From assembly GCA_023266055.1 (NCBI GenBank), contig JAHFRW010000010.1, positions 4,139 through 68,138 on the forward strand: DNA of 64,000 bases, written 5' to 3'. The stretch comes from Gammaproteobacteria bacterium (GTDB lineage Bacteria > Pseudomonadota > Gammaproteobacteria > Ga0077554 > Ga007554). Both the position numbers and the translations under genes were made by a program. The notes below the pieces were generated by a model. That model searched no databases. It had not been told where the DNA came from and saw only the letters and a program-made list of their open reading frames with translations. Positions 31,606 to 58,713 of this stretch are shown here, piece after piece. How positions within the stretch are numbered: position 1 is the stretch's first letter; the number at the start of each line of letters is the position of its first letter.

Positions 31606-32664
31606 TTACTTTGACGAGAAGGTATGGTTAACACCCACAGAGAAGGATGAAACATCCTTGCCTGTTACGCCACCCACACCCTCAACCGTGTACTTGGCCG
31701 CAGAGTCGTTGCTGACCATGGTGTACAAAGCATAGGCTTCCGTGGTCTTGGACAGGGCATAGGACGCGCCCAATGCAAACTGGGTCGCACCGGTATCCGC
31801 CACACCACCCGTCTTGTCAGCCACGGCGAGCGCCGCTTTCAAGGTGATGGCATCCATCTTGTGCGCTACGTTCAGGTACCAGGCATCACGGTCATTGTTT
31901 GTACCGCCCTTGTCCGCACTTTCCCAGATGGCGCCAATGGTCGTCGCCCCACCCAAGGTAAAGGCACCGCCAATCTTCCATGCCGTAGCATCATCTGTTC
32001 CACCGGGAACAGTTGTAAAGGCGTTCAACGACTCATAAGCAGCCGTCAGGTAAAGTGGGCCCTGCGTGTAAGAACCGCTCAAGCTGTAGGCATCCTGGTC
32101 ACTTGCGGCCGTGGTCAAGGGCAACTCATCGCTACCGCCAGGACGAGTGCTATAGGCTATCGCGCCCTTGAAACCACTGATGTCCGGCGATCTGTACTGA
32201 ATGGAATTGTCAAACCGGCCACCGAAGGTAGCCTTGTCTGAATTAACCGCGCTTATAATTCCGTTATAATCACCACGGGTATCAACAAAGATATCCATTC
32301 CCTGGGTTGAATTCTTGTAGGGTGTATTGATACGCCCCGCCAGCACCGTGCCGAAACCACCGCTCAAACCCACGTAAGCATCACGTTTCTTGGAGCCCCA
32401 GGTGCTGGTATCAAACGCCACTTCCTGTTCAAACTGCCACATCGCTTTCAGGCCACCGCCCAGATCTTCATCACCCTTGAAGCCTAGACGTGAAGCATTG
32501 CTGCTAATAGCAATTGCCTTGTCTTCATATCCTGCTGCGGCGTCATCGTTGCTACTGAAATCCACTGACATACGGGCCTGACCGTATACTTCAACACCCG
32601 CCTGCGCCAGCACAGGCACCATGAATCCTGCACTTGCCACTATTACCGCCAATTTTTTATGCAT
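31606..32664 (-). CDS. Gram-negative general porin, paralogue 3
   Basis: MHKKL signal, VEVYG, SRLGFKGDEDLG, AYVGLSGGFGTV, C-terminal VGVNHTF. Confidence 0.9.
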   Translation of the reverse strand: MHKKLAVIVASAGFMVPVLAQAGVEVYGQARMSVDFSSNDDAAAGYEDKAIAISSNASRLGFKGDEDLGGGLKAMWQFEQEVAFDTSTWGSKKRDAYVGLSGGFGTVLAGRINTPYKNSTQGMDIFVDTRGDYNGIISAVNSDKATFGGRFDNSIQYRSPDISGFKGAIAYSTRPGGSDELPLTTAASDQDAYSLSGSYTQGPLYLTAAYESLNAFTTVPGGTDDATAWKIGGAFTLGGATTIGAIWESADKGGTNNDRDAWYLNVAHKMDAITLKAALAVADKTGGVADTGATQFALGASYALSKTTEAYALYTMVSNDSAAKYTVEGVGGVTGKDVSSFSVGVNHTFSSK

Positions 32665-32764
32665 ATTACTCATCTCTCCACTCCCCAATTAAGCGTTCAT
32701 CTCCTAAAATATCTTGCAAAAACAGCATACCAACACTTTATGACAACTCGGTGACAACCACCAT

Positions 32765-32804
32765 AAAAAAACGGGCAGCCCTTCATAAAGACAAGGCTGC
32801 CCGT
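32765..32804 (-). terminator. Rho-independent terminator
   Basis: CGGGCAGCC/GGCTGCCCG stem + T7 on the minus strand. Confidence 0.82.
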
Positions 32805-32872
32805 CTATACCTCCCCCATACCAACGGGGAAAGCGCACCACAAGCGGGGTTACTGCGCCCCCGCTCTATGCT

Positions 32873-33934
32873 TTACTTGGATGAAAAAGTATGATTAACA
32901 CCCACAGAGAAAGATGAAACATCCTTGCCTGTTACGCCACCCACACCCTCAACCGTGTACTTGGCCGCAGAGTCGTTGCTGACCATGGTGTACAAAGCAT
33001 AGGCTTCCGTGGTCTTGGACAGGGCATAGGACGCGCCCAATGCAAACTGGGTCGCACCGGTATCCGCCACACCACCCGTCTTGTCAGCCACGGCGAGCGC
33101 CGCTTTCAAGGTGATGGCATCCATCTTGTGCGCTACGTTCAGGTACCAGGCATCACGGTCATTGTTTGTACCGCCCTTGTCCGCACTTTCCCAGATGGCG
33201 CCAATGGTCGTCGCCCCACCCAAGGTAAAGGCACCGCCAATCTTCCATGCCGTAGCATCATCTGTTCCACCGGGAACAGTTGTAAAGGCGTTCAACGACT
33301 CATAAGCAGCCGTCAGGTAAAGTGGGCCCTGCGTGTAAGAACCGCTCAAGCTGTAGGCATCCTGGTCACTTGCCGTGGTTGTCATGGGCAGATCATCACT
33401 GGAGTAATTGGTGCTATAGGCTATCGCGCCCTTGAAACCACTGATGTCCGGCGATCTGTACTGAATGGAATTGTCAAACCGGTTGTTAAACGTGGCGCTG
33501 TTTGAGTTAACCACACCCATAATTCCATTGTAATCGCCGCGGGTGCTGGCAAACACATCCATTGGCTGGGTTGTATTCTTGTAAGGTGTATTGATCCGTC
33601 CAGCCAACACCGTACCAAATCCACCGCCTAATCCGATGAACGAATCACGCTTCTTGGAACCCCAGGTGCTGGTATCAAACGCCACTTCCTGTTCAAACTG
33701 CCACATTGCCTTCAAGCCATTGCCCAAATCTTCATCACCCTTGAAGCCAAGACGTGACTTATTGCTGGTGATAGAAATTGCCTTGTCTTCAAACCCTGCT
33801 GCAGTGTCATCGTTGTTGCTGAAATCCAGGGACATGCGTGCCTGACCGTAAACTTCCACACCCGCCTGCGCAGCTAACGGTGCGGCCAGAACACCTGCTA
33901 CTGCCAAAGCAATTAACTTCTTTTGCATTTTCAT
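32873..33934 (-). CDS. Gram-negative general porin, paralogue 2
   Basis: MQKKLIALAVA; same porin motifs; C-terminal half identical to paralogue 3. Confidence 0.92.
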   Translation of the reverse strand: MKMQKKLIALAVAGVLAAPLAAQAGVEVYGQARMSLDFSNNDDTAAGFEDKAISITSNKSRLGFKGDEDLGNGLKAMWQFEQEVAFDTSTWGSKKRDSFIGLGGGFGTVLAGRINTPYKNTTQPMDVFASTRGDYNGIMGVVNSNSATFNNRFDNSIQYRSPDISGFKGAIAYSTNYSSDDLPMTTTASDQDAYSLSGSYTQGPLYLTAAYESLNAFTTVPGGTDDATAWKIGGAFTLGGATTIGAIWESADKGGTNNDRDAWYLNVAHKMDAITLKAALAVADKTGGVADTGATQFALGASYALSKTTEAYALYTMVSNDSAAKYTVEGVGGVTGKDVSSFSVGVNHTFSSK

Positions 33935-34027
33935 TTGCTCCCTATAAATTTAAGTGCATGTTAAACAGAAATAAAGCCACAAACATCAGATGGCATGGGG
34001 GCAACTTTACAAGGCTGACCCACGAAG

Positions 34028-34103
34028 ATGCAACACCTTTCGTAACGAAAACCACAACCGACGCCAAAGTGTAGCAAATATGATACAGCGGGTAAAAATT
34101 AAA
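34028..34103 (-). promoter_or_regulatory. Conserved upstream block shared with 35501-35577
   Basis: ATGCAACA-28 nt-CCAAARTGTRGCAAATATGAKACRG...AAAAATTAAA with the same spacing upstream of two porins. Confidence 0.6.
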
Positions 34104-34326
34104 GTGTGTCGCCGTGCTCGCGAACCATTAATTGGGACATCCCCGTCCCAATTAATGACTGCGCCCGGCAACAAGTACGCCTGCAGCGCCCGGACAGGCC
34201 TGTCGTTGTTTCCCCATGTTGTCTATACGGGTGCTCTCGCACTCATTCCGACAACACAGGGAAACCTCGGCTATCCGGGGCTTGCCCGCCACCGCTCGCT
34301 TTCGCGTCGCCCTCCCTGGCGGGCGC
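34101..34326 (-). repeat. Structured non-coding repeat, copy 1
   Basis: Inverted homologue of 35729-36011; conserved stems with compensatory changes. Confidence 0.85.
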
Positions 34327-34340
34327 TTCTGTATCTTCTA

Positions 34341-35405
34341 TTATTTGGATGAGAAGGTGTGGTTAATGCCCACCGAAAAAGATGAAACGTCTTCACCCAA
34401 TACACCATTTACGCCATCAAGACTGTATCTGCCAGCAGAGTCATTACCCACCATGGAGTACAGGGCATACGCCTCGGTGGTCTTGGACAAGGCATACGAC
34501 CCGCCCAGCGAAAACTGATTAGCCCCGGTATCTGCCACGCCACCAGTTTCGTCCGCCATGGCATAGGCAGCCATCAGAGCGATGTCACCCATCTTGTGCT
34601 TCACGCTTAGGGTCCAGGCGTCACGATCACCATTTGTAGCGGTGGTACCGCCCATATCCAGACTTTCCCAAATGGCGCCGAAGGTGGTGTGGCTCATCAG
34701 TGTGTAGCTGCCGCCGATCTTCCAGGCAGAAACATCATCACCGCCCGCACCCAAGGCATTCCATGACTCATAACCGGCGGTCACAAAAATAGGGCCGCTG
34801 GCGTAAGTGCCGCTCAAGCTGTAGGCATCTTCCTTGCCCTGGGCTGTCGTCATCGGCAGGCTGTCGCCCGTCGCGGCACTCGGCACAATATACGCCGCCA
34901 TCGCGCTAAAGCCACTCATGTCCGGTGACGCATACGCCACCGCGTTGTCTGCGCCATTCTCATCATTCCAGCCGGTATTCCCATTCAGCGAACCTATAAT
35001 GGCGTTGTTATCGCCACGGGTGTTGCGGAAGGGATCCAGGCCACTGGTCGCAATGCGGTAAGGCGTGCCCAACTTGCCCGCCAGAACCGTACCAAAACCG
35101 CCGCTCAAACCGATGTAAGAAGCACGACGGCTGTCATTCCAGTTGCCAGTGTCAAAAGCAACTCCCTGCTCAAACTGCCACAGAGCCTTCAAGCCACCGC
35201 CCAGGTCTTCATCCCCACGGAAACCAAGACGTGAGCGATTGCTGGACACGGCAAGGGCGCTGTCTTCATTCGTAGCCACTGGATCGTTATTACTGTTGAA
35301 ATCCAGGGACATACGTGCCTGGCCGTAAATTTCAACGCCCGCCTGTGCGGCTAACGGCGCAGCCAAAACACCTGCTACTGCTAAAGCAATCAACTTCTTT
35401 TGCAT
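34341..35405 (-). CDS. Gram-negative general porin, paralogue 1
   Basis: MQKKLIALAVA, SRLGFRGDEDLG, VGINHTF. Confidence 0.92.
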   Translation of the reverse strand: MQKKLIALAVAGVLAAPLAAQAGVEIYGQARMSLDFNSNNDPVATNEDSALAVSSNRSRLGFRGDEDLGGGLKALWQFEQGVAFDTGNWNDSRRASYIGLSGGFGTVLAGKLGTPYRIATSGLDPFRNTRGDNNAIIGSLNGNTGWNDENGADNAVAYASPDMSGFSAMAAYIVPSAATGDSLPMTTAQGKEDAYSLSGTYASGPIFVTAGYESWNALGAGGDDVSAWKIGGSYTLMSHTTFGAIWESLDMGGTTATNGDRDAWTLSVKHKMGDIALMAAYAMADETGGVADTGANQFSLGGSYALSKTTEAYALYSMVGNDSAGRYSLDGVNGVLGEDVSSFSVGINHTFSSK

Positions 35406-35500
35406 TTTACTCGCTCCCTTAAAAAATGTATTTTATGCGTACGAAAACATTACGTTCCAGATGGTAATACAAAGGTTAGGTTGACGGTGCGCAACACCAA

Positions 35501-35577
35501 ATGCAACATTTTTTATCAGTAGGGCGATAAATTGCACCAAAATGTGGCAAATATGAGACGGTGCGCCAAAAATTAAA
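35501..35577 (-). promoter_or_regulatory. Conserved upstream block (second copy)
   Basis: Matches 34028-34103. Confidence 0.6.
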
Positions 35578-35728
35578 AGGGGAAGCATTTATACAAAAAA
35601 TTAAGGGCGGCTGAAATCAGGGGCCTGCAACAAAACAACCCCGCTGCTCTGGGCTAGCGGCCAGTAATTTTTGCCCTGTGTCGCCAAAGGCAATGTCAAC
35701 CGTATGGCCAGATCAAGACAGGCCGCCG

Positions 35729-36011
35729 GCGCCCGCCAGGGAGAGCGAGGCGAAAGCGAGCGGTGGCGGGCACCCCCCGGATAGCCGAGGTTTCCCTGTG
35801 TTGTCGGAATGTGTGCGATAGCACACGTGTAGACAACATGGGGAAACAACGACAGGCGTAGCGGCATTGTGGTCGCCATGACGCGCGGCGTAGTCGCGTG
35901 TCGTGGCGAACGCAGGCCTGTCCGGGCGCCGAAGGCATACTTGTTGCCGAGCGCAGTCATTTTAGGGATTGGGATATCCCAAAATGGCTCACGAGCACGA
36001 CGACACACTTT
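35729..36011 (+). repeat. Structured non-coding repeat, copy 2 (with an extra 60-nt hairpin arm)
   Basis: Homologous to 34101-34326; abuts the stop codon of the VOC gene. Confidence 0.85.
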
Positions 36012-36374
36012 TTACACACCAACATCTGACCATACCGCAAGCTCATTACCGCTTGGCTCAATAAAATGAAAGCGGCGCCCACCGGGAAATGAAAATATGG
36101 CCTTGCTGATCACCCCCCCGGCCTGCTTAACCTTTACTTGTGTAGCCTCCAGATCCTGGCTGTAAAAAACCATTAATGCCGCGCCCTTCTCAGACACTGA
36201 TGCGAGCTCGGACCTGAAAAAACCCCCGTTCAGACCCTGATTCGAGAAAGCGGCATAGTTCGAGCCGTAATCGACAAAGGTCCATCCAAACGCTGTTTCA
36301 AAAAATTGCTTTGTTGCCTGAATATCTTTTGCAGGATATTCAACATAATTGATTTTCTCATGTTTATTCATCAC
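36012..36374 (-). CDS. VOC/glyoxalase family protein
   Basis: INYVEYP..D..ATK.FF, FPGGRRFHFIEPSGNELAVWS. Confidence 0.9.
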   Translation of the reverse strand: MMNKHEKINYVEYPAKDIQATKQFFETAFGWTFVDYGSNYAAFSNQGLNGGFFRSELASVSEKGAALMVFYSQDLEATQVKVKQAGGVISKAIFSFPGGRRFHFIEPSGNELAVWSDVGV

Positions 36375-57180: not shown

Positions 57181-58713
57181 CTAAGCATGCGCCGATCTCC
57201 AGCCTGCTGTTGTTGGAACTTTGTATAAGCCGTAACGCTGATACAGCTGTTGACTTGGAAAGCGCCCCAGACCGATCCCTCGGTCTTTTACTTTATGCCG
57301 CTTCATTAGGTGAGTTCGCAGGCGTTCTTCTGCATACGTCCTGACCTTGCTTAAAGCACTGCTAGAGTTTTTATAATGGAAGTAGTTTGTCCAGCCACGC
57401 AGGCTTGCATTCATGCTGCCAACTATATCATCCAACGGGATCGGGGTACGATCTCTGGTCGTCAATTGTTTCATGCGCTCTTTGATTTTTGCAAGTGATT
57501 TGGTCGACGGACAAACATGAGCGTATCGCTTGCCTGACTTCCTTCCCTTACTCACTCTGATTTCAAATCCTAAGAAATTAAAGCTGCCCTGCCGTGCATC
57601 GACGATATGGGTTTTGGTCTCATTTAACTTGAGATCAAGCTTATCCATTATGTAGCGCATCCGTGCCAATGGCACATCTACTTTGCCTTTGCATAGCACG
57701 ACGAAATCATCCGTATAACGAACAATTCGTGCTCCCAGTTTCTTATCTGGTTCATGCCTGTCCCAAATCCTGTCCAAAATATGTAGGTAGCAGTTGGCCA
57801 GCAACGGTTAAATGACACCCCCTTGCGGGGTGCCTATGCTGTTGGCTTTGCCACCACCCACGTTTCTCTTGGTGCCGTCCTTGTCCTGCTCTATTACCGG
57901 GGCTTTGAGCCAGAGTTTGATGATGTGGAGGATCGCTCCATCAACAATTCGCTCGGCAACAACGGCCAGTAATTTTGCGTGGGGAATACTGTCGAAGTAT
58001 TTCGACAGGTCGGCATCAATGACTTGGGTGTAACCTTGGTATAACGCGTCGGCTATTTTATCGAGCGCTTGATGGGCTGATTTCTTTGGCCGGAATCCAT
58101 ACGAATTCGGGCTGAAATCGGCTTCAAAAATCGGTTCAATGATGAGCTTGGTCACCATCTGGGCTACGCGGTCACGGATCGTCGGAATGCCTGGTGGACA
58201 CAGGCTGCCATCCGCTTTGGGTATCATGACGCGCCGCACCGGGCTTGGACTGTAGCTTTGATTTTTAACCCAGATTTTCCATTAGCCTCGTAGCGAGGGT
58301 GCGCAAGGTGCTGAAGATGGGCGAGAAAAGTTGAAAAACAGGCGAAGGCGTAGTCACTCTACGGTGACAGACTGTTTTTCAACTTTTCTCGCGCAAATTC
58401 AGTGCTTTGTGCGACCGCAGTAGAGTCTAATGGAAAATCTGGGTTTAAGGTCAGTGACTAGTTCCAACAAAAACGTGTCTATCCCTTCTCCGTTTTCTAT
58501 GTCGTCAAAGTCGATCCCGTTAATGCCGGGACTGCCTTTGTTGGCGCGAACAAGGCGGTAGGCAAACATGAGGATGTCTGCCCGCCATACCTTGTCGTAG
58601 AGCGCGTAAAAGCGATAAGCCGGTTCTTGCTTGGCTTTGATATAGAGCTTCCTCTGTAGTGTCCTGATATTCTCAGAGGTAACTAGCACCATGGCAATCC
58701 CCTTTTCCTTCAC
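57181..58713 (-). pseudogene. ltrA: Group II intron reverse transcriptase/maturase pseudogene (no En domain)
   Basis: RFYALYDKV, IPTIRDR, SYGFRP, DLSKYFDSI, GTPQGGVI*PLLAN (nonsense codon), YTDD; split by the MITE. Confidence 0.92.
58268..58444. mobile_element. 177-bp MITE
   Basis: Perfect 18-bp TIR ACCCAGATTTTCCATTAG, TTA target duplication, internal perfect 21-bp stem; removal restores ...DLKNQSY... Confidence 0.92.

Follow-up and report, generated by a model that had tools for sequence, protein, structure and literature searches.

The region between positions 34101 and 36011 of the stretch analysed here (64,000 nt of contig JAHFRW010000010.1, hereafter the window; its own genome, G000, comprises 2.7 Mb in 87 contigs) contains a porin-like open reading frame (ORF; 34341–35405, minus strand) enclosed by two oppositely oriented copies of one structured sequence, both of which were found where an earlier note, made from the sequence alone, had placed them. 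Copy 2 is the full-length element, with a 5′ hairpin (H1), a central branched domain (H2, with arms H2a and H2b) and a 3′ hairpin (H3). It occupies 35728–36011 on the plus strand (284 nt by pairwise alignment and BLAST), or 35727–36011 if a first base C, set by analogy with the filled and empty sites described below, is included. Its conserved core (35728–36006, GGCGCCCGCC...GACGACAC) is followed by a lineage-specific 3′ tail, here ACTT(T) (36006–36011, after GACGACAC), so that the 3′ limit carries an ambiguity of 1–3 T. Copy 1 (34101–34326, minus strand) is colinear with copy 2 and 90–94% identical to it, an inverted-repeat search returning three colinear arms (129, 49 and 29 nt long, with identities of 94%, 92% and 90%, respectively), and the H2b arm is deleted from it: alignment confirms a gap of 60 nt (approximately 35853–35912 of copy 2) bounded by a CAGGC direct repeat, as the note had described for an extra arm present in copy 2 only. 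Both copies had also been said to lie just after stop codons, and they do: copy 1, co-oriented with the porin ORF, has its 5′ end 14 nt past the porin stop, and copy 2, antisense to both neighbouring genes, touches with its 3′ end the TAA of ORF 36012–36374 (minus strand). This adjacency is not a property of the family, in which the distance to a co-oriented upstream ORF ranges from 10 to 1454 nt, and the flanking of the porin gene by two copies is probably a chance of insertion only.

The porin ORF is the third of three tandem porin-like paralogues (31606–35405, minus strand; 360, 353 and 354 aa, with DNA 72–82% identical in blocks), and a canonical intrinsic terminator is kept in the first porin spacer only. 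H3 of copy 1, together with CACACTTTAATTTTT, a T-rich tail, occupies the place that the intrinsic terminator holds in the paralogous spacer between porins 1 and 2, and copy 1 now probably doubles as a terminator-like 3′ structure of the porin gene.

The element is mobile, as attested by its many copies with retained ends and by two clean pairs of filled and empty sites. With copy 2 as query, 51 BLAST pieces resolved into 39 places in the own genome, an outcome of the genome-wide count that the note had proposed; 14 of these are full length (275–291 nt), 24 keep both ends around varied internal deletions, and a few are truncated, at either end. The copies begin GGCGCCCGCCAGGG and finish CGAGCACGGCGACACACTTT, ends that are not inverted repeats of each other, and nearly all are intergenic. 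At orthologous sites in sister genera, genome G007 carries a 291-nt insertion that G011 lacks, with unambiguous limits, no duplication and no loss: GTCTGTACAA is followed in G007 by T-GGCGCCAGCC...GGCGACAC-TATC and then by AATGCGGAG, whereas in G011 GTCTGTACAA joins AATGCGGAG directly, the right flank starting AATGCGG. The second clean insertion, again without duplication or loss, separates G006 (filled) from G008 (empty), and its junction is ambiguous by one G: in G006 GCTTGCCG is followed by G-GGCGCCAGCC...GGCGGCAC-AATC and then G, and in G008 by G(T)TCATG. The first insertion sits inside a small zinc-ribbon ORF and the second at codon 2 of an ORF. Comparison with four same-genus genomes gave no empty site for the own genome (75–79% identity, with spacers that do not align), two further tries within genus g2 found none, and the paralogous porin spacers, tried as a proxy for an empty site, have diverged too far to place a junction. 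The inserted unit is thus one variable first base, a conserved body and a four-base lineage-specific tail. After GGCGACAC the tail reads AC-TT(T) in the own genome, TATC or AATC in the sister genera and TC-C-K-K (TCC plus two nucleotides) in Chromatiaceae. With unlike ends and no duplication at either filled site, the note's statements that terminal inverted repeats (TIRs) and target-site duplication are absent, and that this is not a classical miniature inverted-repeat transposable element, hold good.

Choice of target appears to be minimal. In the lineage with (C)GCTG-type elements, a C stands at position −4 from the first conserved base in 80 of 85 distinct sites, preceded by T in 47 of the 85; in the own, GGCG-type lineage the homologous C is present in 29/29 sites, 24 of which have A or T ahead of this C, and the remaining flank positions hold about 0 bits. 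The insertion point is offset by two to three bases to the 3′ side of the conserved C, for which a TC or AC context is preferred. For copy 2 the 5′ target flank is GCCGC (35722–35726, plus strand), in which the conserved C is three bases ahead of the element's first base.

The three-domain fold is common to the family and belongs to one strand. For copy 2 the minimum-energy fold reaches −150.8 kcal/mol (z −7.7, with none of 200 shuffles as good), the reverse strand folding worse (−123.9 kcal/mol, z −4.75), and with DNA parameters the values are −76.5 for the top strand and −65.6 for the bottom. H1 (35728–35774, plus strand, as are all the domains given here) pairs GCCCGCCA with TGGCGGGC below the tip GCGAAAGC, which is the stem closing a GC-GAAA-GC loop that the note had seen; its sequence varies between lineages yet pairs (GCGCGCC/GGCGCGT, GCCAGCC/GGCTGGC, GATCGCC/GGCGATT, GACCGCC/GGCGGTT; compared by eye, since the alignment splits H1). 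H2 (35776–35925), closed by CCCGG/CCGGG, carries H2a (35790–35847, tip GCGATAGC) and H2b (35863–35914), an arm with G.T/G.U wobbles that the 60 nt missing from copy 1 cover and that occurs in the own genome in two versions, CGCGCTGCGTAGTCGCG and CGTCCCGCGCCGTGGGGCG. H3 (35941–36005) consists of an outer stem TGTTGCCG...CGACGACA and an inner stem CATTTTAGGGAT/ATCCCAAAATG, and is the most conserved module. The nested stems that the note had listed (among them GTTTCCC/GGGAAAC, TGTTGTC/GACAACA and GTGC-GAUA-GCAC) all form in this minimum-energy structure, as does the 3′ hairpin, whose sequences differ between the two copies and still pair. Covariation was upheld when 40 distinct full-length copies, drawn from all sources, were aligned (RNAalifold consensus, 56 pairs): compensatory double changes affect 26 of the 56 pairs against 13.5±1.5 in shuffles (0/500 reach 26) and 9–15 in slid-partner controls, and 96.3% of paired cells are complementary as compared with 87.0% in shuffles. 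H2 (helices 4–9) contributes double changes in 16 of its 30 pairs. Since wobble pairs are conserved (U.G in 39/40 and G.U in 34/40 sequences), the strand of copy 2 must be the folding strand.

The G-rich strand has the leading-strand sequence and is the lagging-strand template, and it is on this template that the folding strand is preferentially found. The same preference appears in G354 (17 of 23 copies) and in the own genome (27 of 39). In the complete 3.45-Mb genome G059, whose GC skew stays above zero between roughly 0.6 and 2.3 Mb, twelve stretches of 20 kb were sampled; of the 30 copies in them, 25 have the folding strand on the G-rich strand, as do five of six where both neighbouring ORFs lie opposite. 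On a separate list of 40 scored matches from this genome, orientation is plus in 23/25 between 0.56 and 2.41 Mb and minus in 13/15 outside. Excision from, and integration into, the template of the lagging strand is reported for IS608, ISDra2 and other IS200/IS605 members (PMC5027513; PMC6006769).

The family is widespread and is recorded neither in Rfam nor in the literature searched. Within the GTDB family of the host, the element is present in 8 of 11 other genomes, and among congeners in one of four, as a weak match. An exact-pattern scan of one genome per species located the 3′ module in 45 stretches, its carriers including the Chromatiaceae Thiorhodococcus, Halochromatium, Lamprobacter, Thioalkalicoccus, Thiohalocapsa and Rhabdochromatium, one metagenome-assembled genome (MAG) of the Ectothiorhodospiraceae and other MAGs; Thiorhodococcus minor has at least 41 matches. 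In an even gammaproteobacterial sample 32 of 401 genomes and 29 of 321 genera match, figures that are lower bounds with two candidates scored per genome, and G059 yielded 217 first-look candidates, of which all 40 that were scored match. A full-length copy with no annotated feature beneath it is carried by the Caedibacter taeniospiralis plasmid pKAP298, the single match in a plasmid collection, and 108 metagenome stretches show the element pattern. The own genome and Chromatiaceae agree exactly in some 30 bases of the 3′ module, which points to horizontal spread combined with strong constraint. H3 also occurs solo, as a unit of 70–85 nt whose lengthened 5′ arm pairs with the tail (GGAGTGTCGCC...GGCGACACTCC; AAAGTGTGTCGCC...GGCGACACACTTT). 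The note had called the element unrecognised, and Rfam agrees: the window region has no match at E<=1 bar a chance hit to mir-2300 (23 bits against a gathering score of 90), and the element in three other diverse copies (L257, L059 and L254) is unmatched at E<=0.1. A full-text search for three element strings returned chance 10-mer matches only, within a scope that leaves most subscription journals and ISfinder outside.

The note had taken the sequence for a mobile or functional single-stranded element, a view borne out by the retained ends, the two clean pairs and the strand-specific fold, and had offered as options a new non-coding RNA (ncRNA) or a partner of an HUH/Y1, IS110 or reverse transcriptase (RT) enzyme. 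Among these, the short 5′ target motif, the lack of target duplication and the lagging-template bias favour movement of single-stranded DNA (ssDNA) by an HUH enzyme. We suggest, as a probable though far from assured reading, that the element is a non-autonomous mobile DNA of about 285 nt that is moved as a single strand by an HUH-type enzyme supplied in trans, in the manner of IS200/IS605 or of repetitive extragenic palindromic (REP) sequences and RAYT. Such transposition would fit insertion without a scar, dissimilar ends whose subterminal hairpins form on one strand, the minimal 5′ motif, the lagging-template bias and internal deletions that keep the ends. An HUH tyrosine endonuclease would recognise the folded end hairpins on ssDNA exposed at the replication fork, cut both junctions and re-ligate the strand into a new single-stranded target (‘peel and paste’).

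The hairpin tips may bear on the role of the interior. They read GCGAAAGC, GCGGAAGC, GCGCAAGC, GCGTAAGC, GCGATAGC, GCGGTAGC, GCGAGAGC and GCGTGAGC, and in Chromatiaceae also GCGAAGC, and all of them match the motif GCGNNAGC/GCGNAGC, whose count per copy averages 2.41 on the top strand, 0.95 on the bottom and 0.43 in shuffles, with one or more on the top strand in 87 of 87 copies. As DNA this mini-hairpin is described as extraordinarily stable, as lying at the priming site of an ssDNA phage (G4) and as poorly bound by single-strand-binding protein (SSB) (PMC13037366). Many of the tip loops are GNRA (GAAA, GGAA, GCAA, GUAA, GAGA, GGGA, GUGA), but the variants GAUA and GGUA are not and yet match GCGNNAGC, and judged on their sequences the tips appear to fit the DNA motif better than GNRA. 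The central domain and these tips may keep the excised or exposed strand compact, join H1 to H3 and resist SSB; a compact, SSB-resistant strand would explain selection on the pairing of the interior, and deletion of a whole domain would leave the ends equally close.

Several observations weigh against single-strand transposition by an HUH enzyme. H1 (GCCCGCCA...TGGCGGGC) and H3 (CATTTTGGGGAC...GTCCCAAAATG inside GTCGCCG...CGGCGAC) are dissimilar, whereas the ends of the IS200/IS605 family carry similar hairpins, and the variation of the first base between copies is left without account by a simple model. No autonomous copy (H1...ORF...H3) was met in the 39 own places, the 45 genome loci, the 108 metagenome loci or the sampled genomes, in a search that was not exhaustive; this was the outcome of the note's proposal to look for longer copies with a transposase, recombinase or RT. 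No protein recurs next to the element: 1340 flanking ORFs, when clustered, returned nothing but spurious frames of the element itself. In favour of an HUH enzyme, Y1 HUH genes occur in each of the examined genomes that carry copies, but they occur also in four congeners without the element. In the own genome, the repeated gene for a 293-aa Y1 protein has its own GTCAAG/CTTGAC end hairpins, and the RAYT genes adjoin their own GTAG-type REPs and not H1 or H3. TnpB (PF07282) was not found in eight genomes of the family and five copy-rich genomes (three of them complete or nearly so), nor IscB (RRXRR) in G000, G007, G059 and G354, nor Y2_Tnp/PF04986 (IS91) in the copy-rich genomes G000, G059, G354 and G213, of which the latter three are complete or near-complete. 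Strand bias is one-sided in G354, where 17 of 23 copies are on the G-rich strand (12/12 in one replichore, 5/11 in the other); in the own genome it is moderate (27/39) and inseparable from gene direction, and where both neighbouring ORFs lie on the strand that is not G-rich, four copies follow the skew and five the genes. Finally, no excision product, circle or enzyme activity has been seen, and the only sequencing records that hold the element are DNA contigs that break at the repeat. In one groundwater study such contigs stop there, with a summed depth over the copies that is about 17–54 times the depth of the flanks, and no contig spans an empty site.

Candidates for a parent element were set aside: matches to the left end only or the right end only in Thiorhodococcus minor and in G005 are contig ends, and the neighbouring genes of a left-end fragment in G041 are unrelated. 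Among 82 ORFs around nine H3-only loci, Pfam recognised one IS91-type transposase and one group II RT beside an IS4-type insertion sequence (IS), the rest being ordinary genes. A hand tally of matches (E<=1e-15) to a 283-aa Y1 protein of the own genome gave 22 of 31 element-positive as against 154 of 368 element-negative genomes. This enrichment is not counted as evidence, for this family is very common (177/400, among them G054, G156 and G322, flagged unpublished), kinship between genomes makes them non-independent, each list gives minimum numbers and no match is present in the complete carrier G213.

The own genome also contains a separate IS200-like element, which encodes the 293-aa Y1 HUH protein (NHYH, YVVLNP and a C-terminal helix-turn-helix) and ends in GGGTCAAGTCTTGACA and TGTCAAGACTTGACCC. 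It is present as one full copy and several partial ones (G000:C73:10207–11085; C47:117–549; C34:35584–35895; window approximately 2802–2922, that is G000:C84:6940–7060), an ORF-less derivative of about 120 nt lying inside the window. The protein resembles TnpA-Y1 subclass 2.1/2.3 (PMC6006769). For subclasses 2.1 and 2.3 that survey found no REP or end structures in association, and 2.3 is centred on Chromatiales (Quentin et al., 2018; PMC6006769). A bolder proposal, which we think rather unlikely and put forward tentatively, is that the element is the DNA substrate of such an ‘orphan’ Y1 HUH enzyme and represents a new class of ssDNA transposon in which the body itself is the machine. A three-domain fold of ssDNA with SSB-resistant tips would then present two unlike ends to an enzyme acting in trans, and may also recruit primase on the lagging-strand template.

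We consider it quite unlikely that the element is instead a mobile gene for a structured ncRNA, be it an omega-RNA-like guide or scaffold, a regulatory or terminator RNA or an RT-copied RNA. The covariation with its conserved G.U pairs on one strand, the strength of the RNA fold, the many GNRA tips, the co-orientation of 26 of 36 copies in the own genome with the upstream ORF and a possible action of H3 with its T-run as a transcription terminator there would all suit an RNA, and the window also contains a broken RT of a group II intron. Yet the T-run tail is peculiar to the own genome, orientation in G059 tracks GC skew even against both neighbouring genes, no sigma-70-like promoter site was found within or beside either window copy, and internal deletions that would destroy the RNA fold are common with both ends kept. 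The four diverse copies without an Rfam match, the tip variants that depart from GNRA, and the failure to find TnpB in 13 genomes or IscB in four speak in the same direction. Of the RT option, the broken intron RT is all that stands behind it, and RTs occur also in congeners without the element.

Distinctly improbable, too, is a composite repeat of REP or bacterial interspersed mosaic element (BIME) type, in which H3, and perhaps the other hairpins too, would be REP units of RAYT and the 285-nt form a cluster kept by the host for functions in mRNA 3′ ends or the nucleoid. The intergenic position of nearly all own-genome copies and GTAG at several hairpin feet inside the element (seen by eye) accord with it, and solo H3, with a 5′ arm that pairs with the tail, resembles the ‘double foot’ REPs that have been described (PMC6006769). 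RAYT-like genes are found in carriers, and G006 has one some 680 nt upstream of a copy whose 3′ end is abutted by a RAYT remnant. However, the foot of H3 is GTGT...ACAC and not GT[AG]G...C[TC]AC, the RAYTs of the own genome have other REPs alongside, congeners with RAYT genes carry no copies, and the three-domain unit is conserved across orders and entered as one piece in both filled sites, each time within an ORF. With regard to the loci themselves, the G006 remnant (L240:6700–6790; G006:C9) starts mid-gene (…QRHGNDLLMRHAGLLRD…), and two intact RAYT paralogues and an IS256-like transposase lie up to 4 kb upstream. The own genome (G000:C47:1136–2490, L243) has a pair of neighbouring RAYT-like genes, with open frames of 212 and 131 aa, and ahead of each stands a classical GTAG-type REP (GGTAGG-type), namely GGTAGGGTGGGCAC...GTGCCCAC and GGTAGGTTGGGC...GCCCAAC, the latter occurring at least six times in the genome.

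A non-autonomous rolling-circle derivative (IS91/ISCR/Helitron-like, with a Y2 HUH enzyme), whose terminating end would have H3 as its subterminal hairpin, solo H3 being a one-ended or truncated product, is very improbable. It would account for unlike ends, for the lack of target duplication, for a short motif beside one end and for a subterminal hairpin that stops a few bases short of the 3′ end. At one metagenome locus (L163=L177=L237) an H3-only unit has a frameshifted IS91-type transposase (Y2_Tnp and Zn_Tnp_IS91) 1.1 kb upstream, encoded on the strand of the unit, and two Thiorhodococcus minor copies lie 90–400 nt upstream of Y2_Tnp fragments. These two neighbourhoods, though, have only the transposase fragment in common, at differing distances, truncations affect both ends and not the 5′ end alone, and Y2_Tnp is missing from the hits in four of the six carriers examined (G000, G059, G354 and G213); PF04986 was found in G043 and weakly in G030. 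Hardly credible is a relation to IS110/IS1111, as a bridge-RNA-bearing remnant or a dedicated target: that family likewise has neither TIRs nor target duplications, and an IS in G007 lies at the same internal point (between GGCGT and AGCGGC) in at least two copies, but this IS, being bounded by 13-bp inverted ends of its own, does no more than interrupt the element, a search for DEDD_Tnp_IS110 (PF01548) found none in the carriers G005 and G007 although copy-less congeners have it, and the option is unsupported because the flanks differ at every site bar one conserved C, which is no long bridge-RNA target.

Other mobile elements lie in or near the copies. At 57181–58713 of the window (minus strand) an RT is split into three ORFs (104, 143 and 207 aa; RVT_1 113.5 bits, one internal TAA); we take its C-terminal piece to be a group II intron maturase domain, and the whole is probably a decayed group II intron. 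In a metagenome copy (L154:299–1100) an ORF-less group II intron lies between H1 and H2 on the opposite strand, with Rfam matches to group-II-D1D4-7 (103.5 bits) and to Intron_gpII domains V–VI (62.8 bits). The IS of G007 (L048:1–222 and L049:1–122 in contigs C35 and C17; also C5 and C37), with 13-bp inverted ends ATGGACTCCACCC and GGGTGGAGTCCAT, has an ORF starting MKHTATVIGL..., which we assume to be IS110-like; the assembly lacks its interior, and PF01548 finds nothing in G007. A 19–20-nt insert, CATTGTCACCTT(C/T)ACGGTG, is seen in the G007 copies L048 and L049 at two different positions, one in the tip of H2a and the other close to where H2b ends, and a related string occurs once in the own genome (C47). 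An IS with a broken frame, presumably of IS4/Tn5 type, stands about 58 nt into copies of the element at L043:4504–5724 (G009:C9) and L036 (G005:C78), with matching ends of about 99 nt at the G009 and G005 junctions.

The element is of significance as an abundant and widely transferred sequence, with some 40 to 200 copies per genome of 2.7–3.4 Mb. It breaks short-read assemblies, interrupts genes (both mapped insertions being within ORFs) and is itself a landing place for mobile DNA, a group II intron and two kinds of IS having entered it. Its features point to ssDNA transposition, yet the rule of alike ends is broken and no parent is visible. Two questions thereby become testable: which HUH enzyme acts on it, possibly one of the Y1 subclasses for which no substrate is known, and why a ‘selfish’ DNA keeps an interior fold through compensatory changes. 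Moreover, clean, scar-free and strand-specific insertion at a minimal motif is of interest for ssDNA-based genome engineering.

With integron attC sites and the initiation signals of ssDNA phages and plasmids (the G4 origin, ssiA) the element has in common that one DNA strand is folded and that structure is conserved over sequence; G4-type origins carry the GCGAAAGC mini-hairpin, the same as in the element (PMC13037366). Unlike attC, the element has no RYYYAAC/GTTRRRY core sites, cassette array or integrase context, and unlike all three it is scattered over the chromosome, at sites that number from tens to hundreds. With IS91, ISCR and Helitrons it shares asymmetric ends, a 3′ subterminal hairpin, insertion without target duplication, a short target motif and end-only derivatives, but it has defined 5′ and 3′ ends in both filled sites, and Y2 genes were not found in most of the copy-rich genomes examined. 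Like REP, REPIN and BIME sequences it is a high-copy, mostly intergenic set of hairpins with a solo form (H3) bearing complementary feet, it is a hot spot for mobile elements, and its enzyme would come in trans from a low-copy HUH Y1 gene. It is, however, 285 nt of three different domains where a REP is a 20–40-nt palindrome or an inverted pair, it has no GT[AG]G foot (GTGT/ACAC in H3), and it is spread across orders with near-identical 3′ modules.

The closest resemblance in behaviour is to IS200/IS605 and palindrome-associated transposable elements (PATEs), which likewise have no inverted ends, cause no target duplication, carry subterminal hairpins on one strand, insert 3′ of a short flank motif, favour the lagging-strand template and give rise to ORF-less derivatives that keep the ends. 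The 5′ hairpin of the element starts 2–4 nt from the junction, whereas that of IS608 lies about 19 nt from it, and the element fixes one or two target bases, 2–3 nt from the cut, a weaker and offset preference compared with TTAC or TTGAT. Its interior is a conserved, covarying, branched domain, and neither a tnpA/tnpB parent nor, in the copy-rich genomes, TnpB was found. On two defining features of the IS200/IS605 family, similar palindromes at the ends and ends shared with an autonomous element, the element thus stands outside, and yet it behaves like a member.

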